NCBI GenBank assembly: GCA_965228855.1
Contig: CBDDIJ010000003.1
Location: 32,001-96,000 of the forward strand
Source: Candidatus Obscuribacterales bacterium
Lineage (GTDB): Bacteria > Cyanobacteriota > Vampirovibrionia > Obscuribacterales > Obscuribacteraceae
Length of the DNA stretch: 64,000 nucleotides
Reading direction: 5' to 3'
In this document: piece after piece, positions 23,994-57,737 of the stretch
How the letters are laid out: every line of letters starts with the position of its first letter
Numbering within the stretch: position 1 is the first letter of the stretch
Notes under the pieces: generated by a model
What the model saw: only the letters and a program-made list of their open reading frames with translations
Told to the model about the DNA's origin: nothing
Database searches by the model: none
Position numbers and translations under genes: made by a program

Positions 23994-24045
23994 CTAATCG
24001 GATGCCACAACGGCTTCCATAATGATTGAGGGAGATATGGTCAAA

Positions 24046-24939: not shown

Positions 24940-24966
24940 TTCTTTCTATTCTTAACAACCATGAAG

Positions 24967-24995
24967 AACCGGGTGCCGAAGGCGCCCGGTTTTTG
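24967..24995 (+). terminator. Rho-independent terminator after tsf
   Basis: AACCGGGTGCC-GAA-GGCGCCCGGTT followed by T-run. Confidence 0.8.
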
Positions 24996-25133
24996 CTTTA
25001 TCCGTGGATTTTTGCATGGAAGCAAGTGCTGACAATCTATTAGAATGTCTGTCTGGAAGAGGGTAGCAAGAGGCGCTATGATCTCCTGCGGTACTGCACC
25101 CAGCTGGAGACGTGCACTCCAGGGTCATTCAAA

Positions 25134-25877
25134 ATGCAAGAAGCCGAAACACAGTACAAGCGTATTCTTTTAAAACTCAGTGGCGAAGCCTTACAAGGCG
25201 AGAAAGGTTTCGGCATTGATCTGAAGGTAATAAACGGAATTGCCGATGAGATAGCCAAAGCGCATAATCTCGGTGTGCAAATCGCCATCGTAATTGGTGG
25301 CGGAAATATATTCCGCGGCATACAGGGTGCCGCAAACGGCATGGATAAAGCTGCTGCGGACTACGTCGGCATGCTCGCCACAATCATGAACTGCTTGATC
25401 ATGGGCGAAGTGCTCACATCCAAAGGTATAGACACCAGGGTACAAACAGCTATCGCCATGCCGAGTGTTGCTGAACCGTTTATCCGGAAGCGTGCCATCA
25501 GACATCTGGATAAGGGTCGAGTGGTAGTCTTCGGGGGTGGTACCGGAAATCCACACGTCACGACAGACACTGCTGCCGCGCTTCGCGCCGCTGAAATTAA
25601 GGCAGATGTTATCTTGATGGCTAAAAATGGCGTGGATGGTGTTTTCAGCGATGACCCGAAGAAGAACCCGGATGCCAAGAAGATTGGCAGAATTGGATTT
25701 GATGATTTAATCAAGCAGGATTTGAAAGTGATGGATGCGTCAGCTGTTGATTTATGCAAACAGAACAGCATTCCAATCATTGTGTTTGATTTCAATCAAC
25801 CCGGCCGCATCGAAGAGATTGTTTGTGGAGGAAAAGTAGGTACCCTGGTTGGTTCGCGTCTTGGAGGACGAGCATGA
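25134..25877 (+). CDS. pyrH: UMP kinase
   Basis: RILLKLSGEAL, GGGNIFRG, GTGNPHVTTDTAAALRA, DLKVMD. Confidence 0.97.
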   Translation: MQEAETQYKRILLKLSGEALQGEKGFGIDLKVINGIADEIAKAHNLGVQIAIVIGGGNIFRGIQGAANGMDKAAADYVGMLATIMNCLIMGEVLTSKGIDTRVQTAIAMPSVAEPFIRKRAIRHLDKGRVVVFGGGTGNPHVTTDTAAALRAAEIKADVILMAKNGVDGVFSDDPKKNPDAKKIGRIGFDDLIKQDLKVMDASAVDLCKQNSIPIIVFDFNQPGRIEEIVCGGKVGTLVGSRLGGRA

Positions 25878-26440
25878 CAGTAGAAACAGCAGATGAAGTT
25901 CTATCCTCGGGTGAGGACAGAATGAAAAAGTCGATCGATTCTTTGAAATCAGACTTCAAATCGATCCGCACTGGTAGAGCCAACCCTCAACTTCTCGATA
26001 GAGTCGAAGTCGATTACTACGGCACACCGACTCCGCTCAAGGGGATGGCAAACATCTCCACACCTGATGGTCGCTCGCTGCTCATCCAGCCCTACGACAA
26101 GACTACGATCAAAGATATCGAAAAGGCGATTAACAAAGCTGAACTCGGTTTGACACCAAACAGCGACGGCAATGTAATTCGCATCACAATTCCGGCTCTT
26201 ACCGAAGACAGACGTAAGGACTTGAATAAGCAGGTGAAAAAAGTTGGTGAAGACGCCAAAGTTTCTGTTCGAAATGTTCGTCGCGATTGCGACCAAGACC
26301 TAAAGAAATTCAAGGATAAAGGGGTTTCTGAGGATGAGTTGAAACGAAAAGGTGACGCGCTTCAGAAAATGACAGACAAATACATTTCTGAGGTCGATAA
26401 GGCTATAAAGGATAAAGAAGCCGAAATCATGGAGATCTAA
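25874..26440 (+). CDS. frr: Ribosome recycling factor
   Basis: IRTGRANP, VDYYG.PTPL, IPALTEDRRK, VRNVRRD; ATGA overlap with the pyrH stop. Confidence 0.97.
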   Translation: MTVETADEVLSSGEDRMKKSIDSLKSDFKSIRTGRANPQLLDRVEVDYYGTPTPLKGMANISTPDGRSLLIQPYDKTTIKDIEKAINKAELGLTPNSDGNVIRITIPALTEDRRKDLNKQVKKVGEDAKVSVRNVRRDCDQDLKKFKDKGVSEDELKRKGDALQKMTDKYISEVDKAIKDKEAEIMEI

Positions 26441-26456
26441 CGGAGGTCTGTTTCGC

Positions 26457-28328
26457 ATGTGCGGAATCGTAGGATATTTAGGTTCGAACCACGCTGCTCC
26501 CGTTCTTCTATCGAAGCTCAGGGTGCTCGAGTACCGAGGTTATGATTCTGCCGGCGTCGCCGTGATAGAAAGTGGCCGCTTGAACGTACTGAAGGCGGTC
26601 GGCAAACTCTCGAATCTCGAGACGCTTTTGCAAAAGGAAAGACCGAGCGCTACTGTCGGTATCGGGCATACGCGCTGGGCTACACACGGCAGTCCGACTG
26701 ATGAGAACGCTCACCCGCACATCAACGCAAGCGGAACGTTAGCGATTGTCCACAATGGCATCATTGAAAATTATTCGGAGCTTAAGGCTGACCTGATCGC
26801 CAAAGGTTACGTTTTCCGTTCTGACACCGACACGGAAGTGGCAGCTCATCTGCTTTCTCACGAAGTCGAAAAGGACGGAGATGTACTTGCTGCGATTTTG
26901 AGAACGGTTTCGCAAATGTCCGGTGCCTATGCGTTGGGCATCGTTTCTCAAAACAGCCCCGACAGAATCTACGCTGTTAACCACCACTACTCATTGACCG
27001 TCGGTCTGGGTGAGAACGAAAGCTTCCTTGCGTCTGATTCCGCGGCGGTGCGCCAGTATACAAATAAAATCTTGCGTCTGGCCCAGTCGGAAATCGCTGA
27101 AATAAGAGCTGATGGAGTGCGTTTGTTCTCATTCGACGGCGCCGAGTCATCACGAGAGCCGGTTTCTGTTGAAGCGAGCGCTTACAAGATCGATAAAGAA
27201 GGTTATAAACACTTCTTGCTCAAAGAGATCAATGAACAGCCGCTCGTGCTGCGCCAAACGCTGAGCAAATATCTGAGCGGTGCAGACAAGCAAGTCAATT
27301 TCAACGTCGACAGCTTCTCTCCGGACATCGAAGGAATGTACGGCGTGAAAATGACGGACGAAGAAATTCGCTCTATCGATCGCGTTCAAATTGTTGCCTG
27401 CGGAACCGCATATCATGCGGGTATGGTCGGCAAGTACGTGATTGAAGAGCTCTGCGGAATTCCGGTTGAAGTTGATATCGCGTCGGAAGTTCGTGGACGA
27501 AAACTTCTCGGTAATGAGAGAACGCTTTCAATTGCCGTTTCCCAATCAGGTGAAACAGCAGATACTCTCGCTGCCGTTAAGGACGCCATCTCGAACGGTT
27601 CATTCACGCTCGGTATTACAAACCGACCGGACTCTCACCTCGCTCAGTTGACGCAGAATTTGATTGTCACCGAATGCGGTATCGAAGTTTCGGTCGCCGC
27701 AACCAAGACTTACGCCGCTCAGTTGATCTGCTTCTATCTGCTCGCCATCTACCTGGCGGAGAAACGCGGATCGATTACACCTGAGCGGGCGCGACAATTG
27801 AAAGTTGGTTTGAACCAACTTCCAGGCGTCGTCGAACAAATCTTGGGACGAGAAGAAGAGTATCGCCGCGAGTCTCTAAAGCTAGCTGATGCTCAGGACG
27901 TGGTATTCATCGGTCGCGGCTTCAACTATCCGACCGCTCTGGAAGGCGCGTTGAAGTTGAAAGAGCTGAGCTATATTCACGCTTCCGGCTATGCTGCCGG
28001 TGAGTTGAAACACGGACCAATCGCTGTTCTCGACTCTTCCGTTCCCGTTATCACCGTTCTTGTCCCCGGCAAAGTATATGAGAAGACGTTGTCTAACGCG
28101 CAAGAGTCGCGTGCGAGAAACGCTCGCATGGTAGCGATTTGCGTGGACGGAGATGAAACGGCACCCAAGACCTTCGATTACTTCTTCCGAATTCCGGCGG
28201 TCGAGGAGCTTCTCAGCCCCATCGTCACCGTGGTTCCGATGCAATTGATGTCTTACTTTGTCGCCGACTACCTCGGTAAAGATGTCGACCAGCCCCGCAA
28301 CCTCGCGAAGTCGGTCACCGTCGAGTAG
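26457..28328 (+). CDS. glmS: Glutamine--fructose-6-phosphate aminotransferase
   Basis: MCGIVG, LEYRGYDSAG, GHTRWATHG, SQSGETADT, ELKHGPIA, PRNLAKSVTVE. Confidence 0.98.
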   Translation: MCGIVGYLGSNHAAPVLLSKLRVLEYRGYDSAGVAVIESGRLNVLKAVGKLSNLETLLQKERPSATVGIGHTRWATHGSPTDENAHPHINASGTLAIVHNGIIENYSELKADLIAKGYVFRSDTDTEVAAHLLSHEVEKDGDVLAAILRTVSQMSGAYALGIVSQNSPDRIYAVNHHYSLTVGLGENESFLASDSAAVRQYTNKILRLAQSEIAEIRADGVRLFSFDGAESSREPVSVEASAYKIDKEGYKHFLLKEINEQPLVLRQTLSKYLSGADKQVNFNVDSFSPDIEGMYGVKMTDEEIRSIDRVQIVACGTAYHAGMVGKYVIEELCGIPVEVDIASEVRGRKLLGNERTLSIAVSQSGETADTLAAVKDAISNGSFTLGITNRPDSHLAQLTQNLIVTECGIEVSVAATKTYAAQLICFYLLAIYLAEKRGSITPERARQLKVGLNQLPGVVEQILGREEEYRRESLKLADAQDVVFIGRGFNYPTALEGALKLKELSYIHASGYAAGELKHGPIAVLDSSVPVITVLVPGKVYEKTLSNAQESRARNARMVAICVDGDETAPKTFDYFFRIPAVEELLSPIVTVVPMQLMSYFVADYLGKDVDQPRNLAKSVTVE

Positions 28329-28726
28329 TGTCCGACGAACTAAATTGCAAGATCGAAAATGTGCTTCTTGTAGACGATGACGCAAACATTAGATTGATCG
28401 TCAAGTTTGCGCTGGAGAAGCAGTCTAATTGGAGTGTCAGTGTCGCCGAGTCCGGTGAAGATGCATTGGCTCAGCTGGACAGTTTCGAACCAGACCTGAT
28501 TCTTCTGGATGTAATGATGCCGGATGTTGATGGACCGATGCTTCTCGAAACGATTCGAGCGCGGTTCAAGGGTTCAATTCCGGTGATTTTCCTTACTGCG
28601 AAAATCCAGAATCAGGAGATTCACCGGTATAAAAACCTTGGCGCCCAGGGTTTAATAACCAAGCCATTCGATCCCATGACATTGGTGCAACAAATCAAAA
28701 ATATTCTGGGACGGCGGTCGCTTTAG
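28328..28726 (+). CDS. Single-domain response regulator (CheY-like)
   Basis: LLVDDD, LILLDVMMP, FLTA, KPFD; GTG start overlaps the glmS stop. Confidence 0.9.
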   Translation: MSDELNCKIENVLLVDDDANIRLIVKFALEKQSNWSVSVAESGEDALAQLDSFEPDLILLDVMMPDVDGPMLLETIRARFKGSIPVIFLTAKIQNQEIHRYKNLGAQGLITKPFDPMTLVQQIKNILGRRSL

Positions 28727-28786
28727 TACAATTCTTGCTGGAGCCTCAAATCTATATCGACCTCGGAAAAATTCGATGGTGTTCGC

Positions 28787-30688
28787 GTGTCAGACGAAAA
28801 GAAAACGCGATACTTCAGGTGGTATCACCTTTATTACATCCTCGCCCTGTTCGGCGTGGCGTCAATTGCTTTCAGTTTATTCCTGAATCAAACCATTATT
28901 GCAAAGTACAACGCGTCCATTGAAGAGAACCGGCAATGGAGCTTGCGTCTCAAGCTTATCTCTGAGCTCAGTCGGATTGCTGCCGACGTCAATGCACCGG
29001 GAAACGATGTTTTTGAAAACCATGACGTCGCCGCAGAACGGCAGCGTTTGGAGCTTCACTTGCGGAACTTGAGGAAAAAGCTGAAAGACGTCCGCGGTCA
29101 GTTTCAATATTTTGGAATACTGGATCTTGACCGATTTCCGAAGCTGGAATCCGACTTGCAGGCAATTGAGAATCGCCTGGATGAGCAAACGGCCGAGGCT
29201 CGCGAGACTATGAATCTGTTCGAGAAAGGAAAAACGGTCGAAGCCGCCAGGCAAATGGCAGTGATGGATCGCTGTTACTACAACGCGAGCGCTGCCCTAA
29301 GAACCTTCTACCTACATCTCACTGACATTCAGAGAGAGTCTTTTGCCGTGCAATCGAAAGAGCTTGAGTTCTTCCGCTCCCTTGAGCGAATCGTCGGTGG
29401 TGTTGTGATGTCTGCAATTCTCGCGATTACGTTCTATGGTCATAAGCTGGCGAAGCAGATAACAAAAGATGAAAGCGAAAAAGAACAGCATGTTATGCAG
29501 TTGCAGGAAGTGAATGAAGGTCTCGAGCTGAAGACGTTCGAATTGCAATCGGCGCTGACTGATCTCAGGGATGCTAACCAGCGGGTGGCTGAGAGCGAGC
29601 AAAAGTTCCAGGCAATTTTCGACCACACGTTCCAGTTCATTGGTCTTATGGATACCAGCGGGAATCTGCTTGAAATTAATCGCACGGCGTTAGATTTTGC
29701 GGGGATAGCTCGCGAAGATGTTGTCGGAAAGAAATACTGGGAAACCTACTGGTGGTCGCACTCTCCGGAGTTGCAAACGAGGCTGAAGCACGCCATAGAG
29801 GAATCGTGCGAGGGCAGATTTGTTCGCTTCGAAGCAACTCAGTTATCTTCCTCGCGTGAAATTGTTTCCGTGGACTTTTCGCTCAAGCCGGTAATTGACC
29901 ATGAGGGCACGGTCGTTTTGCTGATCCCTGAAGGGCGGGATATCACTGAGAAAAAGGATGCTGAGACTCGGGTAAGCGAGTTTTATTCGACTGTATCTCA
30001 TGAACTTCGGACGCCGCTTACTTCTATTCGGGGGTCTCTTGGTCTGATTGCCGGCGGTTTGACAGGTCCCATCACGGGTGAAACCGCAAACTTCGTTAAA
30101 ATTGCAAATGACGAAACCGATCGATTGATACGTCTGATCAACGACATTCTAGACCTTCGAAAACTGGAAGCGGGAATGTTGGAACTTAGAACGGCTAAGA
30201 TTAGCATTCGCGAAATGGTCGATAAAACCATCAAGAATATGAATGGAATGGCATATCAGTCTGGAGTCTCAATAATTGGACCGGACGAATGTCTCGAAAA
30301 TACGACGCTGCCTGAAATTGTATGCGATGAAGATCGGTTGATTCAGGTCTTAACGAATCTGCTGTCGAATGCAATCAAGTTCTCGAAGCGGGATCAAGAG
30401 GTCACTGTGTTGTTGGAGAAACGAGATCCTCAACGAATTCGTTTCTCCGTGAGAGACATGGGGTGCGGCATTCCTGCCAGCCAACGGCACAAGTTGTTTG
30501 GAAAATTTCAGCAAGTCGATCAAACGGACACTCGGAAGAAAGAAGGATCGGGTTTGGGTCTGGCCATTTCCAAAGCTCTGGTTGAACAGCACGGCGGAGA
30601 GATTGGCTTCGACAGCGACGGAAAAAATGGTTCTACATTCTGGTTTGAAGTCCCGCTTGATTGCACAGGAGATAATCGAAGTGCTTGA
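28787..30688 (+). CDS. Membrane sensor histidine kinase (periplasmic helical domain, PAS, HisKA, HATPase)
   Basis: Two TM segments; PAS ([16 protein letters not shown]...GRDITE); [13 protein letters not shown]-box; [18 protein letters not shown]. Confidence 0.95.
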
Positions 30689-31925
30689 ACGTTTAAAAAA
30701 CGCTCGCGTTTTCGTTGACGATGATAAAGTGCGAACTCAAATCTGTCGGATTCTCATAAGCGAAAAATTCAGGGTTACGAATTCGAAGACGGCTGCCGCA
30801 ACGGAGCGAGCCGGCGAAACCGCAGACATTGTTGTTTGGGACGATCAGCTTCTTACTGACGCAGGTTCCAAATTTTGTTTGGAAGAGAAAAGACTGAGTC
30901 CCGAAGCAAAATTCTTCTTCGTAAGTAAGGACTGGTGTGGAGAAGAGGATTTCGTCTGGTTACGAGATATTGTCGGTGTGTCGACTCAATTTATCGAACC
31001 GATTAATGAGAAGGTCTTCGTTGCGGGCATTCGTGCGGCACTCATGGGCGAGAAGAAACGACAAACGCTTCTCCCCGTGGATGAACCGTGTAGCACCAAA
31101 GGTGGTGGCGGCACGCTTGCGGATGACCCTGACTCCGTGGCACTTATCGCAATCCAAAAGCAGCTTCGCGAGAGAGTCGTCGAAGAGTGGAAATACTTCA
31201 GTTCTATGGTTGATGACGCGGCGAACGCAGACAGATCGCTTGCGGCATTCGAGCCGCTTATTAAGATCGCACATAAGTTGCGTGGGAGCGCTGGTTCTCT
31301 CAATCTTCTTCAGTTAAGCAAATGCGCCGGTTGTATTGAAGATTGGCTGAAAATGTTCAGGTTTCGTGGAAGTGTACACCGAGACATACTTTTTTCCGCC
31401 ATAAGAGAGCAGATAAGCTCAGGTAATAAAAGTCTCGAGCTGCTTGAGCCAATCGTGCAAACCGTCCAGGGGCGTTCATTTGAAGATGATGGCGACCGTG
31501 CGGCACCGCTGCTAGTGCTCGGCATAGGCGATAATGATGAGCAATTGTCGGAGATTGAAAGGTTGCTTGCTGACGGTGCAAGCGAGTTTTTCGGGCTATC
31601 GGTCCCAGTCAAACTTTTGAGCGAAGCAGAGCTGCTGAAGCCTAATTTGATAATTCTTCATTCCGGAATGATATCCGTTTCAGTTGTCGATGCTTGTGCA
31701 AAAATTTGTTCTGATCTGCACTCCCGGGAGATGGCAGCGGCATGTTTCATCACAGCACAACCGCAGACATTCGATATCTCTGATTTACCGGCGGAAGTAT
31801 CTTGCATTCAGAAAATCTCTGATGGCAGTGGGATTACCGACCTGCAAGGCTACCTTTCGCGGATACGCAGCAGAGGATTACCTCGCAAGGATGATGGCGA
31901 TAGCTCTGAAAGTAAATATACTTAG
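30681..31925 (+). CDS. Hpt-domain phosphotransfer protein flanked by degenerate receiver-like domains
   Basis: [12 protein letters not shown]pt motif; receiver-like FVDDD...VVWD at N-terminus; C-terminal PNLIILH lacks the Asp. GTG 30681 with AGGAGA RBS overlaps the HK stop. Confidence 0.75.
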
Positions 31926-31951
31926 TTAGATAGTCTAATTGAAGTAAAATC

Positions 31952-32623
31952 GTGCCCAAGATTTTAGTAGTTGATGATGATCAAGTCGTTTCAGAACTAG
32001 TCTGCGCCTACCTATCCAACCCTGACTATGTTGTGGAAACCGCAAAGGATGGCAAAGATGCCGAGTGTTTGCTCGCCGTCAGTTCGTTTGATTTGATTGT
32101 GCTCGACTGGATGTTGCCGGATACGACCGGAATCGAAATTTGTCGTGAGTTTAGAGCTCGAGGTGGGCGAGCTGCAATTCTTATGTTGACTTCGCGAAGC
32201 GACAGATTTGACAAAGCTGCCGGTCTTGATGCGGGTGCCGATGATTATCTGGTTAAACCGTTCGACCAGGTAGAGTTTCAAGCTCGTGTCCGAGCCTTGC
32301 TGCGGCGACCGGAGTCGTGGAGCGCAAAAGTTTTAAAAGTACGTGACGTGGAGTTAGACACTGCCAATCGAAAGGTTTTTCGCGGCGGCAAAGAGATTGC
32401 TCTTCGTCCTCGCGAGTACGCATTGCTCGAACTCCTGCTGCGTCATCCAGGGCAAAGTTTCACTGCAGACGCTATCTTCCGAAGGATATGGGAGTCAACC
32501 TCCAGCTCCTCTGTCGAAACCGTACGCATGCACGTAATGGCTTTGCGCAAGAAGCTGGCTGATTCGGAAGAAAGTCCCTTGATAAGTTCTGCCAGAGGTC
32601 TGGGCTATAGAATTGATGCTTGA
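31952..32623 (+). CDS. OmpR/PhoB family response regulator
   Basis: ILVVDDD, LIVLDWMLP, GADDYLVKPF, wHTH ending RGLGYRI. Confidence 0.95.
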   Translation: MPKILVVDDDQVVSELVCAYLSNPDYVVETAKDGKDAECLLAVSSFDLIVLDWMLPDTTGIEICREFRARGGRAAILMLTSRSDRFDKAAGLDAGADDYLVKPFDQVEFQARVRALLRRPESWSAKVLKVRDVELDTANRKVFRGGKEIALRPREYALLELLLRHPGQSFTADAIFRRIWESTSSSSVETVRMHVMALRKKLADSEESPLISSARGLGYRIDA

Positions 32624-32759
32624 GCGATTTCTTAAATATTTGGACGGTTATCCACTGATGGCATGAAGTTGACGTTCAGTTTATGTAAGCGCCCTAAGAT
32701 TTGTTGAGTGAAATCACAAATGCAGCCTACTATCGAGGGCTGCCTCTCGGAGGCCAGAA

Positions 32760-32963
32760 ATGTCCCAAAAATACACAGATATCGTCGTGCTCGATACTTT
32801 GGAAAGTGACGAGATGAAGCGCGTAATCGGTGGTCGTCGCGGCGCTGACGATCCGGCTGGTCACGATGCAAACGACGACAAAGGCGGCCGACGTGGTGGT
32901 AAGGGTCGTGGACGTGGCGGCAAAGGTCGCGGCGGAGCCGACGATGGACCGAACCATACGTAA
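32760..32963 (+). CDS. Double-glycine-leader peptide precursor (25-aa leader + 42-aa Gly/Arg/Asp-rich core)
   Basis: GGAGG RBS 6 nt upstream; leader ...LDTLESDEMKRVIGG fits the GG consensus L(-12), E(-8), hydrophobic(-7), V(-4), GG; lies upstream of HlyD and near a C39 ABC exporter. Confidence 0.85.
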   Translation: MSQKYTDIVVLDTLESDEMKRVIGGRRGADDPAGHDANDDKGGRRGGKGRGRGGKGRGGADDGPNHT

Positions 32964-32984
32964 GGTCTGATTCACATTCAATGT

Positions 32985-33021
32985 AACACCGGTAGTGCCA
33001 GTGGCATTGCCGGTGTTCTTT
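32985..33021 (+). terminator. Stem-loop / partial terminator between precursor and hlyD
   Basis: AACACCGGTAGTGCC-AGT-GGCATTGCCGGTGTT followed by CTTT. Confidence 0.65.
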
Positions 33022-33034
33022 GAAGAGAGTGTAA

Positions 33035-34702
33035 ATGAACAAACCGTCTCGCAAGCGCTCATCGGAAGATGACAAAATCGTCCACCTGTCGCCGGTCCCA
33101 TCAAAGGGCCGGCCATTGTCGCGTCTGGCTCGACGCTACGGCGAGCTCGAACGGACGGAACTACTACCCGAAGTTCTCAGTTATTCGCTCTACGCTTTGC
33201 TCGCGCTGCTCTTGTGCGCTCTTGCCTGGACCGTGTTCGCGCGTGTAGAGGTGGTCGCTGTGGCTCCGGCCAAGCTCATCCCGACGGGTCACGTGAAGGT
33301 TATTCAACCGGATATTGATGGTGTCGTAGATTCCATACCTGTTGCCGAGGGACAGAAGGTCGAGGCTGGGACTGTGCTTGCGGTGCTGGAACCATCTCGC
33401 AGCCAGGCTGAGCTGGACAAACGTGATGCCGGACTGAACATCGCTAGACACGATGTCGATACGATGGCACGAGCTAAAGCTGACCTGGAAGGTTCATTGG
33501 CTAACCCTGGTGTTTCACCCTTGCAATCTGTCGACGTCGAGGGAAGCGCGCGAACAATTTCCGATTTGAACACGGCATACGTCCAATTGCGCGAAGCTGA
33601 ACTGGACAGCAAGATTGTTAGTGGTTTCGACTCTGATAGAGCGTCACTGAGTACGCAATCCGTGAGCTTGAGTGAGCAAAAGAATCTTCACCAGACGGCA
33701 CTTTGCGAACGAGCGGAAGAGCGTAAGTCTAAAGTTGCTCAAAAACGGCTGGAGTTAGAGCAGTTAAGGAAGGCGCTTGAATCCGCCAGAGTCGAACTAG
33801 GCCAGGCAAAATTGATCTTCGACGCGACCACTCAACAGGAAGAGTCTTTCCGTGGAGTATTTCAGCAAGGAGCAGTCTCCAGGGTTGATTATTTGAACAT
33901 CGTCAAAGAGGTCGAGCGCTCGCGTCGAGACGTTACGCGTCAAGAATCAGTCGTAGAAGAACTAACCAAAGAGATTGGTATCGCCGAATGTCAGCTCAGA
34001 GAGCGGATAGCCGATGACAAAGCGGCAACACTGGAGAAGAGGGCACAAATTAAGTCTCTCGATTTCGAGATAGGTAAACTGGGAGTCTTAAAGCGTGATC
34101 TTACACGAAAGCATGCCCTTGCTCTGGCATCGTTCCAGACCGCGCGTGCCAGAACATCCGCATTGCTGGCACGATTGACCGCATCGCTGGACGAACGCAG
34201 GCAGCGGCTTCGCGAAGCCGAGGCTCACCTGCGATTGGCTGACCGGGATCTAAGCGCCACTCAGATTGTCTCACCTGTCTCCGGCACCGTCACTGGTATC
34301 AGGTTGCGAGGGAAAGGTCACGTCGTGAAACGCGGCGAGAAACTGATGAGCGTTGTTCCGGAAGGAGCGGCGCTGGTGTTCGATGCTGTTGTCGCGAACA
34401 AAGATGCCGGTTTCGTCGAGGCTGGACAGGATGTAAAAATTAAGTTGACGGCCTTTCCGTTTGAAGACTTTGGAGTGTTAGAAGGCAAAGTGACTCACGT
34501 AGAGGCGACGTCTGAATCTGCCAACAGCTCCTTCTTTGTGGCGAAGGTTGAACCGAACCAACAGTTCATAATGGTGAGGGGAGAGAGACGTCCTCTGGTA
34601 AGCGGCATGACAGCAAGCTGCGAGATCGTTACCAGAAATCGTCCGGTGATGAACATCCTATTTGAGCCGTTTCGCAGAATGCAGGAAACTCGCTGGCAAT
34701 AG
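33035..34702 (+). CDS. HlyD-family type I secretion membrane fusion protein
   Basis: N-terminal TM, KVIQPDIDGVV lipoyl half-motif, long coiled coil, IVSPVSGTV, KLTAFPFEDFG.LEG.V, LVSGMTASCEI. Confidence 0.94.
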   Translation: MNKPSRKRSSEDDKIVHLSPVPSKGRPLSRLARRYGELERTELLPEVLSYSLYALLALLLCALAWTVFARVEVVAVAPAKLIPTGHVKVIQPDIDGVVDSIPVAEGQKVEAGTVLAVLEPSRSQAELDKRDAGLNIARHDVDTMARAKADLEGSLANPGVSPLQSVDVEGSARTISDLNTAYVQLREAELDSKIVSGFDSDRASLSTQSVSLSEQKNLHQTALCERAEERKSKVAQKRLELEQLRKALESARVELGQAKLIFDATTQQEESFRGVFQQGAVSRVDYLNIVKEVERSRRDVTRQESVVEELTKEIGIAECQLRERIADDKAATLEKRAQIKSLDFEIGKLGVLKRDLTRKHALALASFQTARARTSALLARLTASLDERRQRLREAEAHLRLADRDLSATQIVSPVSGTVTGIRLRGKGHVVKRGEKLMSVVPEGAALVFDAVVANKDAGFVEAGQDVKIKLTAFPFEDFGVLEGKVTHVEATSESANSSFFVAKVEPNQQFIMVRGERRPLVSGMTASCEIVTRNRPVMNILFEPFRRMQETRWQ

Positions 34703-37423
34703 TCAGCTAATGCTAGCCTGAGACCAGAGGTGGTAATAGAGACCTTTCATTCCAAGGAGCTCTTCGTGACTGCCAGCTTCTACCACCTCGCCACGGTCAA
34801 GCACGAGAATTCTGTCGGCGTCACGAATTGTCGAAAGGCGATGTGCCACCACGAATAGTGTCCTGTCTTTTCTCAACTTTTGCATGTTATCTTGCAACGC
34901 TTTCTCTGAATCATAGTCCAAAAAACTGCTCGCCTCATCGAAGAGGAGAATTTTCGGATCGTGCAAAAGAGCGCGGGCAATGCAGAGGCGTTGTCGTTGT
35001 CCGCCGGAAAGATTTATGCCGCCCTCGGAAACCTCGTATTGATACGACTTGGGCAGGGTATTTATGAAGTCGTGAATCCCGGCAAGTTTCGCCGCATCTA
35101 TCACGTCCTGATTCGAGGCCTGCGGATTGTAGAAGGCAATGGTATCAAATATGGTTCCGCGAAAAAGGTAATCTTGTTGAGATACAACTCCTAACTGCCG
35201 GCGAAAGTCTCTCAAGGAGAGATGTTTCAGATCGTGACCATCGACCAGTATGCGCCCCTCGGAAGGCAAATAGAGACCCTGCAACAGCTTGAGCAACGTG
35301 GTCTTACCGCATCCGCTCCTCCCGACTATTCCCACCATCTCTCCGGGTTTCACCGAGAAAGTAAGGTTTTGAACGGCGTTCACATCAGTGTTGCTAGGAT
35401 AGCGAAATGTGACGTTCGCAAATTCAATGTTGCCCTGGACGACGACATTCAACTTGCTTTCTGGTTGAGTTTCTTCCGGCTCAGAGTCCAGCACTTCACT
35501 TATCCGATCGAACGACACTCCCAGATCCTGAACCTCATCCCAGATGTCGACTAGATAAATTATTGGTTGCGTGATTCTTCCTACGATCATCGTTAGCGCC
35601 ATGAGTTGACCGATGGATAATTTATCCTGCATCACCAGTTGAGCACCAAACCATAGAAGCAGTATGCCGCCTATCAGGTGAACAAACTCCGCAGCCATGC
35701 CGGTAAAGCGCGATACCAGCGTTCCTCGATAGCGAGTGTTCAATGCGTCGATAAATAATTCTTCCCAGGCCCAGCGCGTGCGATTTTCCGAAGCAGCCGA
35801 TTTAATCCGCTCAACGCCTCGAATTGCTTCGATTGAGAAAGAATTACTGGCCACCTGCTTTTGAAAAATCTTCAGCATCAATCCACGCAACCAGGGCGTG
35901 ACAATTACCAGAATAGCTGTGAATAGCAAAACGTAGAACACTACTCCGATCCCGAAGGACCAGCTGTAGAGAAAAACCAGCGCGAGGTAAAACACGGCCA
36001 TTAGCATATCGACAGAAGTAGTCAGCGCTGACCCGGAAATGAAATTTTGAATTTTTCGATTTTCTTGCAATCTTGAAATGATGTCGCCAGTGGTGTGCTC
36101 TTCGAAAAAGGAAAGCGGCAGACTGAGAAGGTGCTTGAAGAATCTGGTGAACAATGTCTGGTCGAGTTTAACGGCGACGAATGCCACAAGGTAAACTCGA
36201 ATTGACGAAATCAGCGTTTGAAACAGAATTAAAATCACGACGCCAAGCACGAGCATATTAAGCATCGTGATACTTTTGTGAACTAAAACCCTATCTACGA
36301 CCAATTGCGTAAATAGCGGAATTGACAGGGATAGCATCTGCACCGCTAAAGAGGCTGCCGCGATGTCGATAATCGTTTTCCTGTGCGGAGTAAGAAGCTT
36401 CAAATACCGCGCCAGGGGAAACGACTCTTTCTCACCTTTGCTAAGGGTTGGTAGTGGTGAGAGCTCCAGCGCATACATGCTGAAGTGGGTCGAAAAATCG
36501 TCACGACTGATTGTTGTCAGTTCGTTAGCGGGATCCGCTATCAACGCTTCTGTTTTGTCTATTTCATAAAGCACAACGAAGTGATTGCTGTCCCAATGGC
36601 AAATTAGAGGAAGCCTGGCGCGAAGCAATCCGTCATATGAGGCTCGTAAGCCGCGGCTTATAAAACCGAGCTTTTCTGCGGCTTCCGACATTGAAGACAG
36701 ATCTGTGCCCTGAGATGTTAATCCGACAAGTTCTCTAAGTCTCTTGTGACTGACGTTCATTCCGTGGTGTTTCAAAACCATAGTCATACAGGCAATGCCG
36801 CAGTCCATCGGACTTCGCTGCAGGACCATTGGATACATCTTGAACTTTCTTCTGATGAAACCTTTAAAGGTAACGTCCTCTGTTGACGTCTCATTGAGGT
36901 CGTTCGCTATATTTTGAGTCTGTGGAACTTCGCTCTGTTGCGAACTTTGCGCAGCCTCGTTGGCTTCAGGGCGCGATGCTTGCTTGGAGGAATTGTTGCC
37001 GGGGCGTTTCCAATTTGAGTTAGCTTCCGTCTTTATTTGCAGTGCCGAGGTCCGGAGCTTCGATTCCATCTCGGGATTTTTGGCGAGCCACTCTCTAATG
37101 CATTCCTGAGATACTTTCAAGAGCTCCGTGTTGGTCGCCGAGCGTGCTGCTGTCTCCGTAATTCCTTTCAGGAAAACGGATTCTAAGCCTATAAAATCGT
37201 GAGTTTGCTCGATAACGGCAACTGTTTTTTCTTCACCTGAGTGACTCTGGAATAATCGAACCTTGCCGTTTAAAAGTACATAGACGCACTCCAGCTGGGT
37301 GCCTTCGTCGTAAAGCATGTCTCCCAGTTGAAGCTTTATACGCTCACCGGCATCAATAATCTCTAGCGGAATACTAAAACCGTTGTGCTTGTTGTTACCG
37401 TCCCCTGCCATGATCACCGTCAT
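34703..37423 (-). CDS. Peptidase-containing ABC transporter (cNMP-binding domain + C39 peptidase + TMD + NBD)
   Basis: cNMP-like N-terminus; QRSPMDCGIAC, HWDSNHFVV, IADPA (Cys/His/Asp intact); GRSGCGKTT; LSGGQRQR; LLFDEAS. Confidence 0.94.
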   Translation of the reverse strand: MTVIMAGDGNNKHNGFSIPLEIIDAGERIKLQLGDMLYDEGTQLECVYVLLNGKVRLFQSHSGEEKTVAVIEQTHDFIGLESVFLKGITETAARSATNTELLKVSQECIREWLAKNPEMESKLRTSALQIKTEANSNWKRPGNNSSKQASRPEANEAAQSSQQSEVPQTQNIANDLNETSTEDVTFKGFIRRKFKMYPMVLQRSPMDCGIACMTMVLKHHGMNVSHKRLRELVGLTSQGTDLSSMSEAAEKLGFISRGLRASYDGLLRARLPLICHWDSNHFVVLYEIDKTEALIADPANELTTISRDDFSTHFSMYALELSPLPTLSKGEKESFPLARYLKLLTPHRKTIIDIAAASLAVQMLSLSIPLFTQLVVDRVLVHKSITMLNMLVLGVVILILFQTLISSIRVYLVAFVAVKLDQTLFTRFFKHLLSLPLSFFEEHTTGDIISRLQENRKIQNFISGSALTTSVDMLMAVFYLALVFLYSWSFGIGVVFYVLLFTAILVIVTPWLRGLMLKIFQKQVASNSFSIEAIRGVERIKSAASENRTRWAWEELFIDALNTRYRGTLVSRFTGMAAEFVHLIGGILLLWFGAQLVMQDKLSIGQLMALTMIVGRITQPIIYLVDIWDEVQDLGVSFDRISEVLDSEPEETQPESKLNVVVQGNIEFANVTFRYPSNTDVNAVQNLTFSVKPGEMVGIVGRSGCGKTTLLKLLQGLYLPSEGRILVDGHDLKHLSLRDFRRQLGVVSQQDYLFRGTIFDTIAFYNPQASNQDVIDAAKLAGIHDFINTLPKSYQYEVSEGGINLSGGQRQRLCIARALLHDPKILLFDEASSFLDYDSEKALQDNMQKLRKDRTLFVVAHRLSTIRDADRILVLDRGEVVEAGSHEELLGMKGLYYHLWSQASIS

Positions 37424-37470
37424 CGAGTAACAACTAGTTTATTCCATTTTTTCGCAGTTGCCAGCGGTTG

Positions 37471-38268
37471 CTATTCAAGTCCTTGAGATATCAGCCACGT
37501 GTTTAAGGAGTTTTGAAGCCATTCGTTCAACAACAATTCGGAGATTTCCTCTTCTATATCCTCAGTGAGTTCCGCTCGGAAAACCCCTTCAACTTTGTAA
37601 AGATGATAATTCGAGGCTACCTTGAGGGGACCAATTAAATCTGCCCGTTCAGGAGAAAACGCTTGCGATTCTAGTTCTGCAGCCAGCTTGTCTCGGCGTA
37701 AGCGACCAAGGTATCCGCACTTTGCCCGCGTGGCGTGTTCTGTACTGTAGGTGTGCGCCAGTTCGAAAAAGCTTTCTCCTTCCATAATCTGAGCTTTCAA
37801 TTCTTTAGCGGTCCCCTGTGTTTTGCAGACTATTCTATAAAGCTCTACTTCATCGAATTTCATTCGATTCATCGAGAAATAGCGCTCAACTGCTACTACA
37901 CCGGCAATGGATTTCTTGAATAAATCAATCAGAGCTTCCTTGCGCGCCCAGTCTCTAAGAGCGTCATCGGAAATTTTGACAGTCGCCAACCAGCTTTCCG
38001 TTTCGACTGCTGTAAATAATTTCCGCGATTTTCTGATGTCAGTGATTGCCGCATCCACGTCGTCCTCGTGCGGCTCGAAGCCATTATCCTTGCAGAAACG
38101 CTCGGCAATAAGCGCTAGTAGAGGATCGGCCAGAACAGATTCTTGACGAGTCAGTATGAGCGCGTCGATTGTTTCTGCCAGCGAAAGATTCTTTTCTAGG
38201 AAGTCCCGTGTTTGCTTGCTGATTGTGAAGGCCATCACCGAAATATACGCGATTTCGCTACTTGACAA
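37471..38268 (-). CDS. PpiC/parvulin-type foldase associated with peptide export
   Basis: GESFFELAHTYS...GYLG...LIGP rotamase pattern; co-directional with and upstream of the ABC exporter; start may be ATG 38235. Confidence 0.78.
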   Translation of the reverse strand: MSSSEIAYISVMAFTISKQTRDFLEKNLSLAETIDALILTRQESVLADPLLALIAERFCKDNGFEPHEDDVDAAITDIRKSRKLFTAVETESWLATVKISDDALRDWARKEALIDLFKKSIAGVVAVERYFSMNRMKFDEVELYRIVCKTQGTAKELKAQIMEGESFFELAHTYSTEHATRAKCGYLGRLRRDKLAAELESQAFSPERADLIGPLKVASNYHLYKVEGVFRAELTEDIEEEISELLLNEWLQNSLNTWLISQGLE

Positions 38269-38398
38269 TGCTGATTTGCCACCAGTATATTTTGATCACA
38301 TTTAAACGCGCTTACCACTGGACAGTTGTTACTCGAAACCGTTTTTCGGTTATGAGATAGCTCCCTAAATGTGCTCATCGGGCACTCGGAGATAGACT

Positions 38399-38929
38399 TT
38401 GGCGAACCTCTTTGACAAGAATGATGTTCAGATTGAATCGTTTCCATACGAGATACATCACACTGATCGTGAGGCACCGGAACTCGCATGTCCGCGGTGT
38501 GGGCACGTTCAAGCTCGCAGAAAACGTCAGGTTTGTGGTGGCTGCAATCACTTGATACCAGTGGAGAAATGTCGCCAGAGTTGGACTAATTTACCGACGG
38601 CGAAAGATAGTTACCGGAAGATGGCGCAAGTTTTCTTCGATGAAGGAAAAACGCGTGACTTCAGGAGCTCGCGAGGCAATTTCGGCTGGAAAGTGTTTAT
38701 CCGAAATGTCGTGGTAACGTTTTTCGTGGCGGCACTAGTTATGGTGCCAACCGTTTACGGCTTGCGTGCTTACGTGGGCGAGAAGGACTGGAAGAAAGTC
38801 GAGAATCGATTCGATGCGGTGATTGGACCCGCCTTTCATCGTATCAACGTTAATCCCAAGATTGCGTCTAAACCGCAAGACGCTAAGCCGAAAATTGCAA
38901 AACGGCAACGACCCCGCCGCCATCACTAG
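38399..38929 (+). CDS. Hypothetical membrane protein with N-terminal zinc ribbon
   Basis: CPRCG...CGGC and one TM segment (VVVTFFVAALVMVPTV). Confidence 0.65.
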   Translation: MANLFDKNDVQIESFPYEIHHTDREAPELACPRCGHVQARRKRQVCGGCNHLIPVEKCRQSWTNLPTAKDSYRKMAQVFFDEGKTRDFRSSRGNFGWKVFIRNVVVTFFVAALVMVPTVYGLRAYVGEKDWKKVENRFDAVIGPAFHRINVNPKIASKPQDAKPKIAKRQRPRRHH

Positions 38930-38936
38930 TTCAAAA

Positions 38937-40961
38937 CTAAAGTGTTGGCGAGCTGCCTGTTTCCGAAATCTGTGTCGGATCTTCTTCCACTACTTTTGGA
39001 GTGATGAGCAGCATCAACTCGGTTCGGTTTCGGCCTTTAAACGTGGTTCGGAAGAATGCGCCGAGAACTGGCATTTCAGCGAAGTACGGAACTTTGGACA
39101 GAATCGCCGCTTCCTGTTCGGTGAATAAACCGCCAATGGTTATCGTCTGTCCGTCCTTGATTCGAATTTCTTGCGTGATGATATCGCGCACGTTCAGCAA
39201 AGTGACTGTCGTCTGGTTGGCGCCCTGACCGAAGGTTTGCGGCGCTCCCAGTGGAGTGGAGACTTGTGGACGGATGCGGACTCTGACGAAACCGTCTTCG
39301 GTGACTTTAGGTAGCACGTTTAAAAAGATTCCGGCTTTCGCCAGCTCAACGTTTGTCGTTACGACACCCAAACTTACTGTAGATGTGACTTTGTGGACAA
39401 CTTCGTTGGCAATCGTGATCAATGCCTCTGTGTTGTCTACGACTACCAGGCTGGGATTCGCTATGACTTTTGCTTTGTTGGTCTGAAGCAGCAATTGCAA
39501 GTTCAAATTCACGGCGGTTGGCATTGTTGCAATGTTGGCGGCGCCACCGCCGCTGCCACCAAGGGTGAGGAAGTCGAAGCCACTAGCCGAGCTGGGAACT
39601 GGCTGGACGCCTGCGATGCTCGGGAAAACTGTCGGCAGAAGCGAGCCGACTAAACCTGTGAAGGCCGTGCCCGCATTAGTGGGTGTCGTGCTGTTGCCCG
39701 TGAAAGGAATACTCGGGTTAGTGGGGTTTGCTATGCCAGAACCGTTGACCGGACTTCCCAAGCCGGGTAGAAATGATAGTAGAGGAGCGGCCGAGTTCCC
39801 CATGATAGAAGCCGATACGCCCTGACCCTGGACGTTGAACGTGCTGCCCAGAAGTCGTACTCCCTGGTTGTTCAGTTCAACGAGCGACGCCTGAATGTGA
39901 ACTTGCTTGGGCCGGCGATCGATCATGCGAATTGCTTCTTCTGCAATCAGTACGTCCTGTTCGGTCCCGACCACAATTACTTGTCGTCCTTTAGAATCAG
40001 GAATAATAATCGTGCCACCATCATTCGGTTGCACTATGTAATCCGCGCTTATCTCTTGCAGTTGTCTGACTTGCTGGGTGCCCGGGTCGACGGCGGCGTT
40101 GTTGAATCCTACGCCCTCTTGAACCTGTTCGCGGGAAGAGCCGCGCATGGTCTTGGGTTGCTGGTCTCGGCTTACTTGTGTTTCGAATTCCGACTCTACC
40201 GTGACGTCGTCGCCATCTCCGCCGCCACCGCCGGCGCTACCATCACCTTTGGTGGCAGTTTTCGAGCGTTCTTTAAAGTCGGGGACGTAACCTCGGTTGA
40301 AGATTGAGGCTTGCAAAATCTGAGCGACATCGAAGGGATGGGCATAACTCAATTTAAATGCGCGTGCAACTGGTCGGTTTAATCCAAGTTGCACCATCGC
40401 TTGCAACGTGCCGACGATTACCGTGCTGCTGTCCAGTGTTCGGCTTTCTAGCCCAGCTGCGGCAAGCACGCTGTCCATTGCCTCGTTCAACGTTACATCG
40501 GTAAGTTCACCGGTAATTTTTCCGGTGACCGATTTGTCGACGATTATATTGAGATTGCCGCGCCTCGCGATCTCTGAAATCACCTCGCGCACCGGGGTAT
40601 CTCTGAAGCTCAAATGGTGAATCAAATTGGATTGCACAAACAGTTTGAACGGTTTGCGAATTTGAACCGTGCCGGTTACTGATGGCGTCCGCTTCAATTG
40701 ACTGGTTGGCTTAACAGCTGGAAGAGATTGGGCTAATTGCTTTCCGTCTGCCGACGTTGCTTCCGGCAAACTCGGCGTCACCTGAGCGATCGCAGGAGTG
40801 ATTGTCGATGCGGAGAGCGCCAGAGCGGCGATTACAGTTTTTGACGATAAAGAGAACGGTTTCGTTTCACAAGTATTTCGAGCATCGACTAGTGACACCA
40901 AAAATGGTGCCAGCACTTTTTTTAGAGATTTCGCTCGAGGTGAGAAACTTCGGCGAAGCAT
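38937..40961 (-). CDS. Secretin (PilQ/GspD family) outer-membrane channel
   Basis: LSFRDTPVREVI N0 domain, FKLSYAHP N3, QVHIQASLVE, KVIANP, GQTITIGGL, KVPYFAEMPVLGAFF, TELMLLITPKVV. Confidence 0.92.
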   Translation of the reverse strand: MLRRSFSPRAKSLKKVLAPFLVSLVDARNTCETKPFSLSSKTVIAALALSASTITPAIAQVTPSLPEATSADGKQLAQSLPAVKPTSQLKRTPSVTGTVQIRKPFKLFVQSNLIHHLSFRDTPVREVISEIARRGNLNIIVDKSVTGKITGELTDVTLNEAMDSVLAAAGLESRTLDSSTVIVGTLQAMVQLGLNRPVARAFKLSYAHPFDVAQILQASIFNRGYVPDFKERSKTATKGDGSAGGGGGDGDDVTVESEFETQVSRDQQPKTMRGSSREQVQEGVGFNNAAVDPGTQQVRQLQEISADYIVQPNDGGTIIIPDSKGRQVIVVGTEQDVLIAEEAIRMIDRRPKQVHIQASLVELNNQGVRLLGSTFNVQGQGVSASIMGNSAAPLLSFLPGLGSPVNGSGIANPTNPSIPFTGNSTTPTNAGTAFTGLVGSLLPTVFPSIAGVQPVPSSASGFDFLTLGGSGGGAANIATMPTAVNLNLQLLLQTNKAKVIANPSLVVVDNTEALITIANEVVHKVTSTVSLGVVTTNVELAKAGIFLNVLPKVTEDGFVRVRIRPQVSTPLGAPQTFGQGANQTTVTLLNVRDIITQEIRIKDGQTITIGGLFTEQEAAILSKVPYFAEMPVLGAFFRTTFKGRNRTELMLLITPKVVEEDPTQISETGSSPTL

Positions 40962-41205
40962 GATGTTTCCTGGATTTTTGACATTTTCATTGTAGCGCGA
41001 TAACTGGAATTTGCAATTGAATCACCTTATGTGGTACCGCTTGTGATTGAAACTATATGTGGTGCATATTTGTTTAGGGTTTGAATGGGGGCGAATGGGG
41101 GTGAATCGTTCACTCTGAAAGTGAACTAGGTTCAAAACTGTTTTATGCAAATAAGTTCACCGACAGCATTAGCTCGAGGTGTTAGATGCTGGAAACCCTC
41201 TCCGG

Positions 41206-42594: not shown

Positions 42595-42697
42595 TCGGAA
42601 AACCTCGGCTGTTGCCGCAGATGGCGAAATGAGGAGCTTAGCATGTTATTCTTGCACTAGCTGAGATGAACTTCCTGAAGCGCGTTTGAGAAACGGC

Positions 42698-43867: not shown

Positions 43868-43968
43868 ACAGTTTCAGCCGCCCTCGTTACATTGAAATCG
43901 CAATCTCCGACTGGCTGCCGCATAGCGACTGCCTGCGTCAAATAATATGGTCGTTTAGTGGCGATAAG

Positions 43969-55734: not shown

Positions 55735-56004
55735 ATTGCATTTGTGGAATAAGAGTACTTGGTTCCTTGGGTCCTCCTGAATCGACGCGTCCACGCTCGT
55801 CCAGACGAGGAAGATTAAACGAGGGATATCAAGGGGGTACCAATTGTTCACAAATGGAGCGTATAAATAGTGAGTCGCCATCTAACTGGGTTTTGGCTCT
55901 CCCTCCAGCCCGCCCCTTGTTCAAGAGCTGAATCCCACTTACTACCATATTGCGACTCCACTCGGAGACTAGTCGAACGACGGTTCGACTTGAGGGCTTT
56001 TTGC

Positions 56005-57675: not shown

Positions 57676-57737
57676 CCACTACTCTGTTTGCGGGATTTGA
57701 AAATGCTTTTGATTAGAAGATGGGAGTCGGTCAAAAA

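Follow-up and report, generated by a model that had tools for sequence, protein, structure and literature searches.

Whether signaling genes and peptide export genes that lie side by side form a single pathway, and what the exported peptide would be for, is the question raised by a locus in a 64,000-nucleotide stretch of a Candidatus Obscuribacterales genome (contig CBDDIJ010000003.1, positions 32,001 to 96,000; hereafter the window, in whose positions all coordinates are given). The locus combines a four-protein phosphorelay, a small double-glycine precursor, a type I secretion adaptor, an ATP-binding cassette (ABC) exporter with its own peptidase domain, and a parvulin-like protein. The reading preferred here, to which we assign a probability of roughly 0.55, is that the relay induces the precursor, that the exporter cuts it after Gly25 and releases the core, and that the core is the extracellular effector of the pathway. 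The evidence that carries this reading is the presence or absence of the genes as one block, the restriction of the sensor domain to genomes in which the peptide adjoins the relay, and a conserved operator-like repeat at the precursor promoter. Below, compared genomes carry G-numbers, loci L-numbers, and sequences of the peptide family P-numbers.

An eight-gene island with a peptide precursor and its predicted exporter

Eight open reading frames (ORFs) were confirmed at the coordinates, on the strands, and with the domains (Pfam, NCBIfam) given in an original prediction made from the letters of the window. The segment and its genes are as follows.

28329..38240, no strand: the whole island, a segment present here and missing from the same site in four congeners
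28328..28726, + strand: stand-alone CheY-like receiver (Pfam Response_reg, E 3.7e-29)
28787..30688, + strand: sensor histidine kinase, two hydrophobic spans followed by PAS, HisKA, and HATPase_c domains (Pfam)
30498..31925, + strand: ORF of the Hpt protein (Pfam Hpt, 28.6 bits, cut-off 24.6)
31952..32623, + strand: OmpR/PhoB-family response regulator (Pfam Response_reg and Trans_reg_C)
32760..32963, + strand: 67-amino-acid precursor (25-amino-acid leader at 32760-32834, 42-amino-acid core at 32835-32960, then the stop codon)
33035..34702, + strand: HlyD-family type I secretion adaptor (TIGR01843, 234.1 bits, cut-off 208.65; Pfam HlyD_3)
34703..37423, - strand: peptidase-containing ABC exporter (cNMP_binding, Peptidase_C39, ABC_membrane, and ABC_tran)
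37471..38268, - strand: parvulin-like protein (Rotamase, E 1.3e-10; no signal peptide)

The borders of the island are defined by a genome, G043, that represents nearly the same strain (glmS 99.8% identical, DNA flanks 92 to 95%). When G043 was compared with window positions 24001-44000 by blastn, only two blocks were found, 24245-28328 at 94.8% identity and 38241-44000 at 92.0%. Homology ends at 28328 and restarts at 38241, with 753 unrelated bp between, so the borders of this indel are almost exactly those that the original prediction had drawn. At the island site (L103:4261-4827), G043 has a 188-amino-acid ORF that resembles nothing in the island and in which the motif GRILEPY(F/Y)A is repeated.

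The same site is occupied in half of the genus. The cluster lies at glmS in 4 of the 8 genomes of the window's genus (g1), and glmS directly adjoins a 176-amino-acid ORF in G043, G045, G047, and G048, genomes that are 87 to 95% complete. G046 and G044 have the layout of the window, with glmS, receiver, kinase, Hpt protein, regulator, peptide, and HlyD in succession, exporter and parvulin-like gene on the opposite strand, and then the 176-amino-acid ORF and a secretin; G049 has the same layout up to the end of its contig, which falls inside the exporter gene. In a second genus, g34, all eight genes were found in G086 without glmS and in another order: parvulin-like gene and exporter (+ strand), HlyD (- strand), then receiver, kinase, Hpt protein, regulator, and peptide (+ strand). 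G091, also of g34, follows this order from HlyD to the peptide, where its contig ends. Within the window's genus the cluster proteins are 23 to 79% identical, compared to 85 to 88% for the flanking glmS. The eight genes make up a single unit that is present or absent as a whole among congeners and recurs in rearranged form in a second genus, and this combination indicates a grouping beyond chance.

The neighbors are housekeeping genes, with rpsB, tsf, pyrH, frr, and glmS on the left and the 176-amino-acid ORF, the secretin, and a TPR protein on the right. As the original prediction had held, no tailoring enzyme and no immunity gene is in the cluster. There is no spare ORF in the island and no gap longer than 136 nucleotides (gaps of 136, 71, 47, and 26 nucleotides), and the sole nearby radical SAM gene is of the HemN type and lies 4.4 kb outside. 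The 176-amino-acid ORF (38399-38929) has a zinc-ribbon-like N terminus (CxxC...CxxC) and one hydrophobic span. It adjoins the secretin in all 8 genomes of the genus and is not a member of the island.

The precursor gene is preceded by a ribosome-binding site, GGAGG, 6 nucleotides upstream, and the exporter gene is 1.7 kb away. The encoded leader, LESDEMKRVIGG, agrees with the double-glycine consensus (L-12, E-8, M-7, V-4, G-2, G-1) and is conserved in seven double-glycine-type database homologues and in further loci. The core, RRGADDPAGH...DDGPNHT, is made up of 14 Gly, 7 Arg, 7 Asp, 4 Ala, 3 Lys, 2 Pro, 2 His, 2 Asn, and 1 Thr; hydrophobic residues are absent from it, and it is predicted to be disordered. 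The 67-amino-acid ORF matched no Pfam family, and the ESM Atlas gave no usable match to the core by features; its structural matches were short and meaningless (model pLDDT 0.33). There is one precursor in the genome, and a profile of the double-glycine form found homologues in 8 of the 107 genomes of the order that were compared, this genome included.

The exporter has a cNMP-binding domain (amino acids 30-116; Pfam cNMP_binding, E 4.1e-11), a C39 peptidase domain (197-323; Peptidase_C39, E 1e-36), a transmembrane domain (356-618), and an ATPase domain (685-832). Structures in the PDB were compared with the C39 part alone, as the listing for the full-length protein was swamped by eukaryotic ABCB proteins. 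The Gln, Cys, His, and Asp of this domain align with those of PCAT1 (4RY2; vlQrspmDCGiaC/vrQydltDCGaaC, HFVVLY/HFVVIY, ADP/ADP), and the domain also aligns with ComA. Judged by this intact catalytic set, the exporter is of the processing type rather than the HlyB type. With the C39 catalytic residues and a cognate double-glycine substrate, it has the features of the PCAT/AMS class, cleavage and export being predicted only. It is the sole C39-ABC fusion in the genome, which also has 19 matches to the OEP (TolC-like) domain, all outside the window.

Two other export systems were considered and rejected. The original prediction had named linkage of homologous transporters to large RTX or S-layer substrates as evidence that would count against it. 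For the exporter of the island, HlyB-type RTX secretion is ruled out by the catalytic Cys, by a TIGR01846 score of 635.1 against a cut-off of 725.55, and by the adjacent 67-amino-acid substrate with its N-terminal leader. Three-gene NHLP/Nif11 transport is ruled out by TIGR03796 (556.6 versus 853.3), by TIGR03794 (60.3 versus 156.2), and because there is no second ABC gene.

The parvulin-like protein probably starts at the ATG at 38235, since the edge of the island is at 38240. The PpiC-related peptide maturation protein TIGR04500 is only a distant relative (60.2 bits versus a cut-off of 180). A whole-genome search for the parvulin-like protein detected homologues in 63 of the 151 genomes sampled from the phylum, and a word-indexed search retrieved only 6 close relatives. 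An ABC or HlyD homologue lies within 1.5 kb of the parvulin-like gene in 10 of 29 loci.

Other arrangements of these genes were also observed. At L037:9959-10132, G021 has a second exporter cassette on one strand (parvulin-like gene, exporter, peptide, and HlyD, with no relay) whose peptide has a homologous double-glycine leader and an unrelated core (GKKGKGAKIQCFVGPEDDNGVNPKKGQS), and an orphan precursor of the RGADD type lies in the same genome at L036:8258-8491. In two loci (L006:8832-10171 and L039:1382-3454) the peptide follows a truncated parvulin-like ORF and a fragment of an exporter, either the transmembrane piece or C39 alone. These fragments represent decay or another arrangement, and both loci are at contig ends.

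The phosphorelay and a candidate operator

The four signaling proteins supply the parts of a His-Asp-His-Asp phosphorelay, with an H-box in the kinase, a stand-alone receiver, a histidine in the Hpt protein, and a regulator that joins receiver and output domains; the order of phosphotransfer along it is inferred. The GTG start of the receiver gene overlaps the glmS stop by one base, and the relay genes in genus g1 therefore probably ride on the glmS transcript. Receiver orthologues are 51 to 59% identical in five loci. The H-box SHELRTPL is invariant in six kinases, and AHKLRGS is invariant in four Hpt proteins. The 11-residue Hpt motif occupies ORF residues 258-268, with H259 invariant in the alignment with three orthologues. 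The true start of the Hpt protein is probably near 30690 (about 30.69 kb), because its orthologues are only 380 to 404 amino acids long. The regulator reached no NCBIfam equivalog, the best being PhoB with 198.9 bits against a cut-off of 296.2.

The kinase would sense through a periplasmic domain (amino acids 34-198) between its two hydrophobic spans (15-33 and 198-216). A Pfam search at E ≤ 1 gave nothing credible for this domain. Its AlphaFold2 model has four helices (pLDDT 93.7), and the best Foldseek matches were four-helix bundle (4HB) ligand-binding domains of chemoreceptors and kinases (TM 0.63 to 0.74, all with E > 0.001). Because of these TM scores and the four-helix topology, the modeled domain can be said to resemble the 4HB ligand-binding domains of such proteins. 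The sensor motif NAPGNDVF, at the end of helix 1, is invariant.

The distribution of the sensor domain follows that of the peptide. A sensor-domain profile matched 6 of the 107 genomes, exactly those six in which the peptide adjoins the relay, so the relay genomes are a subset of the peptide genomes. The N-terminal part of the exporter was found in 23 of the 107; G097, with only a broken exporter fragment, did not match this query. Relay genes that never occur with the precursor would have told against the original prediction, and the opposite was seen, as they co-occur in these six genomes from two genera. Thus, relay and precursor are linked and not mere neighbors.

The promoter region of the precursor provides further insight into this link. 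Two features lie there.

32668..32700, + strand: operator-like repeat GTTGACG-N4-GTTTATG, 9 nucleotides, then the -10-like element TAAGAT; the most conserved block of the intergenic alignment
32985..33017, + strand: GC-rich hairpin of 15 bp followed by CTTTG, a terminator or attenuator between precursor and HlyD

The spacer between regulator and peptide is poorly conserved except for the block GTTGACG-N4-GTT(T/G)A(T/C)G, 9 or 10 nucleotides, and TAAGAT or a near variant. With no more than one mismatch, all 6 loci that bear the relay have repeat and -10 element in the same place, and the repeat was absent upstream of the peptide in all 3 loci that lack the relay. There is a single match to the repeat with its -10 element in the 8.2-Mb genome, and the reversed control gave none. 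When up to two mismatches were allowed, the repeat had 3 matches in the window versus 1.9 expected, which is not significant on its own and was not relied upon. The argument for an operator comes from the exact site, its conservation, and its uniqueness with the -10 element included.

In PhoB-type activation, two 7-bp direct repeats with an 11-bp period lie about 10 bp upstream of the -10 element and replace the -35 element. The half-sites at the precursor promoter are 20 and 9 nucleotides from the -10 element, and neither is spaced as a -35 element would be. The repeat is a new, pho-box-like candidate operator. Its conservation lends support to one of the two possibilities offered by the original prediction, that the peptide is induced by the relay.

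The hairpin has a folding energy of -32.9 kcal/mol (z -5.1), and 0 of 200 shuffled sequences folded as well. A strong hairpin follows the peptide stop codon in 7 of 7 Obscuribacterales loci, with differing sequences, and in the window only 17 nucleotides separate it from the HlyD start. From the conserved repeat and -10 element, the co-occurrence with the relay, and the hairpin, the peptide gene appears to yield a short transcript under control of its own, with HlyD reached by read-through.

A cross-phylum family of peptides beside sensor systems

Of 27 relatives returned by a database search, 7 carry a double-glycine leader, and the other 20 begin with a hydrophobic signal. A family profile run against 1.84 billion representative sequences found at least 359 clusters at E ≤ 0.001, 72 of them at E ≤ 1e-10. 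In the 171 family sequences that were analyzed, export signals were sorted by a simple rule into 147 of the Sec type, 8 double-glycine leaders, and 16 others. The last class includes P0155 (60 amino acids), which has the same core family behind a different GG-type leader (…LTLEEAATINGG), and three sequences (P0044, P0129, and P0142) in which the core follows a planctomycete-style LExLExR N terminus (…LETLESRIALS). Across the family, then, at least three or four kinds of export signal have become attached to this core.

The ends of the core are precisely conserved. A DD-x3-H motif plus at most one residue forms the C-terminal end of 101 of the 171 sequences, and the opening motif [RK][RKH]G-x-DD-x3-H is present in 131, in 96 of which Ala comes directly before it. 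A Sec-type cut after this Ala and the predicted cut after GG would yield the same core N terminus by both routes. Many members consist of tandem units, each with the same boundaries, and the invariant columns of the family are the two DD...H motifs and several glycines.

Sec-type members occur in Actinomycetota, Alphaproteobacteria, Verrucomicrobiota, and others, and the core motifs are conserved across at least five phyla. By its sequence, then, the core is not lineage-specific and belongs to an unnamed cross-phylum family, usually with a Sec-type signal. Pfam gave no credible match for the family members scanned, including three multi-unit members at E ≤ 1. Ten clusters were looked up, of which four were named, all as "hypothetical protein", and four motif strings of the core family were not found in the literature searched.

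The gene neighborhoods of the family were compared in 18 loci from species genomes outside the Obscuribacterales and in 28 metagenome loci. The latter remained from 30 after a double-glycine-type locus (L039) and a doubtful one (L067) were left out, and a chance or doubtful match in Phycisphaerales (L019) was kept among the 18 as a locus without a sensor system. A kinase, a response regulator, or both lie within 2 kb of the peptide in 10 of the 18 loci, with regulators of the NarL, OmpR, or NtrC type. Three loci, all from Sphingorhabdus, have a pair resembling an extracytoplasmic function (ECF) sigma factor and anti-sigma factor, together with an S8 peptidase, and the remaining five have neither a two-component nor an ECF set. 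No kinase or regulator was found 2 to 10 kb from the peptide in the 20-kb loci. The metagenome loci behaved likewise in 13 of 28 cases; most of these contigs are 1 to 3 kb long, and L056 and L057 duplicate L017.

In Actinomycetota the neighbor is one orthologous HisKA_3 kinase with a NarL-type regulator. The 150-amino-acid extracellular sensor of this kinase (L017:4525-4971) is 44 to 62% identical across 11 further loci (L004, L007, L008, L012, L021, L041, L044, L046, L048, L050, and L068). It is also 30% identical (pairwise E 3e-8) to the sensor of an alphaproteobacterial HisKA kinase that is paired with an NtrC-type regulator. Pfam at E ≤ 1 gave nothing credible for three kinase sensor segments from Sec-type loci.

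Individual loci had further genes. In Sphingorhabdus (L015:6821-10279, L016:6820-10303, and L020:3-3336), multi-unit members lie behind the ECF sigma factor, with a 250-amino-acid single-span protein (weak zf-HC2 match) and the S8 peptidase, which is divergent and might cut the tandem units apart. In Solirubrobacteraceae (L021:8888-9805), a cation-efflux gene (CDF, zinc-transporter type) flanks the peptide gene divergently, with the two-component genes on the opposite flank, a single case that favors a link to metals.

Possible function of the peptide and relation to known systems

In the preferred reading, the 4HB domain of the kinase would sense a periplasmic cue, and phosphate would pass via the receiver and the Hpt protein to the OmpR-type regulator. 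The regulator would bind GTTGACG-N4-GTTTATG in the place of a -35 element and activate a short transcript that ends at the hairpin, with read-through past the hairpin feeding HlyD. The C39 domain would cut after Gly25, and the ABC exporter, HlyD, and a TolC-like channel encoded elsewhere would carry the core out of the cell. Export may be gated by a nucleotide signal at the cNMP-type domain, and the cytoplasmic parvulin-like protein may be an accessory chaperone. Outside the cell, the disordered Gly/Arg/Asp peptide would act as the effector, possibly feeding back on the sensor. The two invariant DD-x3-H motifs suggest that the core binds a cation.

A precedent for the gating step is HetC of Nostoc PCC 7120 (this and the comparisons below draw on excerpts of the cited papers), whose N-terminal domain was shown to bind ppGpp in vitro and to be required in vivo (PMC10986499). 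HetC shares the cNMP-C39-ABC architecture with the island exporter, and its binding of ppGpp makes nucleotide gating a fair model here. In the excerpted text HetC has no adaptor gene nearby and its substrate is not known, whereas the island has both adjacent.

Several observations weigh against the preferred reading. No relay is seen with the peptide in G021, where the contig is 10.6 kb long, or in G097, where the peptide lies at the end of its contig, and the exporter family is wider than the peptide (23 versus 8 of the 107 genomes). The candidate operator is marked as such by architecture and conservation only, and, as the four g1 genomes are close kin, its presence in six of six loci amounts to about two independent lineages. 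The sensor of the window kinase is unrelated to the sensor domain beside the Sec-type peptides, and the family-wide link may be one of shared regulation rather than shared sensing. In the parvulin-like protein, Arg takes the position of the first of the two catalytic His residues. What the peptide does is a matter of conjecture, metal binding being suggested by its invariant Asp and His residues only.

Small secreted proteins encoded beside, and often divergently from, the two-component system that controls them are represented by CpxP with CpxAR and ZraP with ZraSR. This gene pattern was seen for the Sec-type relatives of the core. CpxP and ZraP are folded, helical proteins with no sequence or fold relation to the island peptide, which is predicted to be disordered. 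By analogy, an effector with feedback would be nearer to such CpxP/ZraP-like partners than to a pheromone or a toxin. It is possible, although we hold this view only tentatively, that the core unit defines a class of cross-phylum extracytoplasmic sensor-partner peptides in "three-component" signaling, each induced by its kinase system, reporting back to it, and perhaps carrying a metal. The unit would be a disordered stretch of about 35 to 45 amino acids, bounded by fixed ends and bearing two DD-x3-H sites. Its precursors would be of the Sec, planctomycete, or double-glycine type, and some would release it in tandem copies.

The alternative that survives best is an autoinducing pheromone circuit in which the core would be the ligand of the kinase 4HB domain, in a positive loop like those of ComCDE, Blp, and Agr. 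An operator-type site on the peptide gene, a dedicated exporter, and strict co-occurrence of relay and peptide are all consistent with such a circuit, as are a kinase whose periplasmic domain is of the ligand-binding type, with NAPGNDVF invariant in it, and the linkage that the family shows with sensor kinases in other phyla. The best, if weak, fold match of that domain is to a chemoreceptor domain that binds D-Arg or D-Lys, and the core starts with Arg-Arg. However, pheromones usually diverge fast and are strain-specific, whereas the motifs of this core are conserved in at least five phyla and recur in tandem copies behind Sec-type signals. Com and Blp have polytopic pheromone kinases and LytTR-type regulators, and the kinase and regulator of the island do not belong to these pheromone-sensing classes. 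The likeness to ComABCDE and Blp, to which the original prediction had appealed, extends to the double-glycine precursor, the C39 ABC exporter, and the adjoining kinase and regulator. It does not extend to the two-span PAS kinase with its 4HB sensor, the OmpR-type (Trans_reg_C) regulator, the two extra relay proteins, the diderm host that needs HlyD and TolC, or a core that is not lineage-specific. Thus, a pheromone circuit seems rather unlikely.

It is improbable that the peptide is a secreted matrix or surface component, with the relay timing the formation of a biofilm or surface layer. The model for this possibility is PteB of Synechococcus elongatus PCC 7942, also a C39 exporter, which secretes EbfG1-4, small unmodified double-glycine proteins required for biofilm formation; the catalytic Cys of PteB is needed for this secretion, and cleavage after GG was found by mass spectrometry (PMC4997328). 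The island likewise pairs a C39 exporter with a small double-glycine precursor whose product would be unmodified, and polycations rich in Arg and Gly could bind lipopolysaccharide (LPS) or extracellular DNA. However, the EbfG proteins are unrelated in sequence to the core and have a biofilm role, with no dedicated relay described in the excerpted text, and the core has no amyloid-prone or hydrophobic segment. Exactly conserved termini and DD-x3-H motifs suggest specific binding, not bulk material.

Little credence can be given to an unmodified class II bacteriocin or microcin for which the relay would be the induction switch. The layout is the classical one, with a double-glycine leader, a C39 ABC exporter, an HlyD-type protein, and an adjoining two-component system, and Wang et al. 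(2011) name clusters of this kind bacteriocin clusters (PMC3140520). However, the core lacks hydrophobic residues, the island leaves no room for an immunity gene, and a Sec-type core family in Actinomycetota, Alphaproteobacteria, and Verrucomicrobiota is more in keeping with a housekeeping or stress function than with a weapon of narrow spectrum.

The clusters described by Wang et al. show that the export half of the island is already known. Three components define their group I, a transporter of the long type that also carries a CAP_ED domain, an HlyD protein, and a rotamase called "SurA"; the group comprises 57 clusters, in all but one genome studied, with an average of only 0.35 precursors per cluster (PMC3140520). 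The island matches this group in its cNMP/CAP_ED C39 ABC exporter, its type I HlyD protein, its rotamase protein, the absence of a modification enzyme, and the small number of precursors, here a single one. It differs in its non-photosynthetic Obscuribacterales host, in a cargo that is identified and comes from a cross-phylum family, and in its four-protein phosphorelay; the term "two-component" was not found in the text of PMC3140520 that was searched. The export system is therefore not "undescribed", as the original prediction had called it. Of that interpretation as a whole, the gene content, the intact C39 domain, and the linkage of relay and precursor stand, and the novelty of the export system and the ComABCDE/Blp analogy do not.

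That the adjacency is meaningless, with a relay that controls other genes and merely travels beside an export cassette, is hardly credible. In its favor, two-component genes are common, the g1 relay genes probably ride on the glmS transcript, and one cassette in G021 has an exporter and no relay. Against it, the eight genes come and go among congeners as a block and stay together through rearrangement, the sensor is found only where the peptide is, and the operator-like site, which occurs once in the genome, follows the relay in its distribution.

The evidence on the host fits the diderm Melainabacteria-like organism that had been proposed. Its nearest named relatives are Candidatus Obscuribacterales metagenome-assembled genomes, and genes for lpxK, a Kdo transferase, and a heptosyltransferase in the window indicate that it makes LPS. 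Among the papers listed by a literature search on bacteriocins, double-glycine peptides, or C39, none mentions Obscuribacter, Melainabacteria, or Vampirovibrionia, which is weak evidence for a lack of earlier publications. Elsewhere in the window, two large ORFs of 601 and 1855 amino acids (55870-57675 and 57720-63287), with no Pfam match at E ≤ 1e-6, sit where the G+C content climbs to 0.56 to 0.62, and a 467-amino-acid protein (878-2281) consists of DUF6996, DUF6997, and DUF7226.

The new elements are a phosphorelay that belongs to the island itself, the candidate operator, and a cargo from a large unnamed, sensor-linked family with interchangeable export signals. Exporter, cargo, candidate operator, and relay are each present once, and natural strains have or lack the island, which makes it a clean case for the study of how such an exporter is fed and gated. 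If the view of the family as sensor partners is true, the Obscuribacterales would have rewired a sensor-peptide module to a dedicated exporter that crosses both membranes, and many orphan kinases of soil bacteria would gain a testable ligand or effector.

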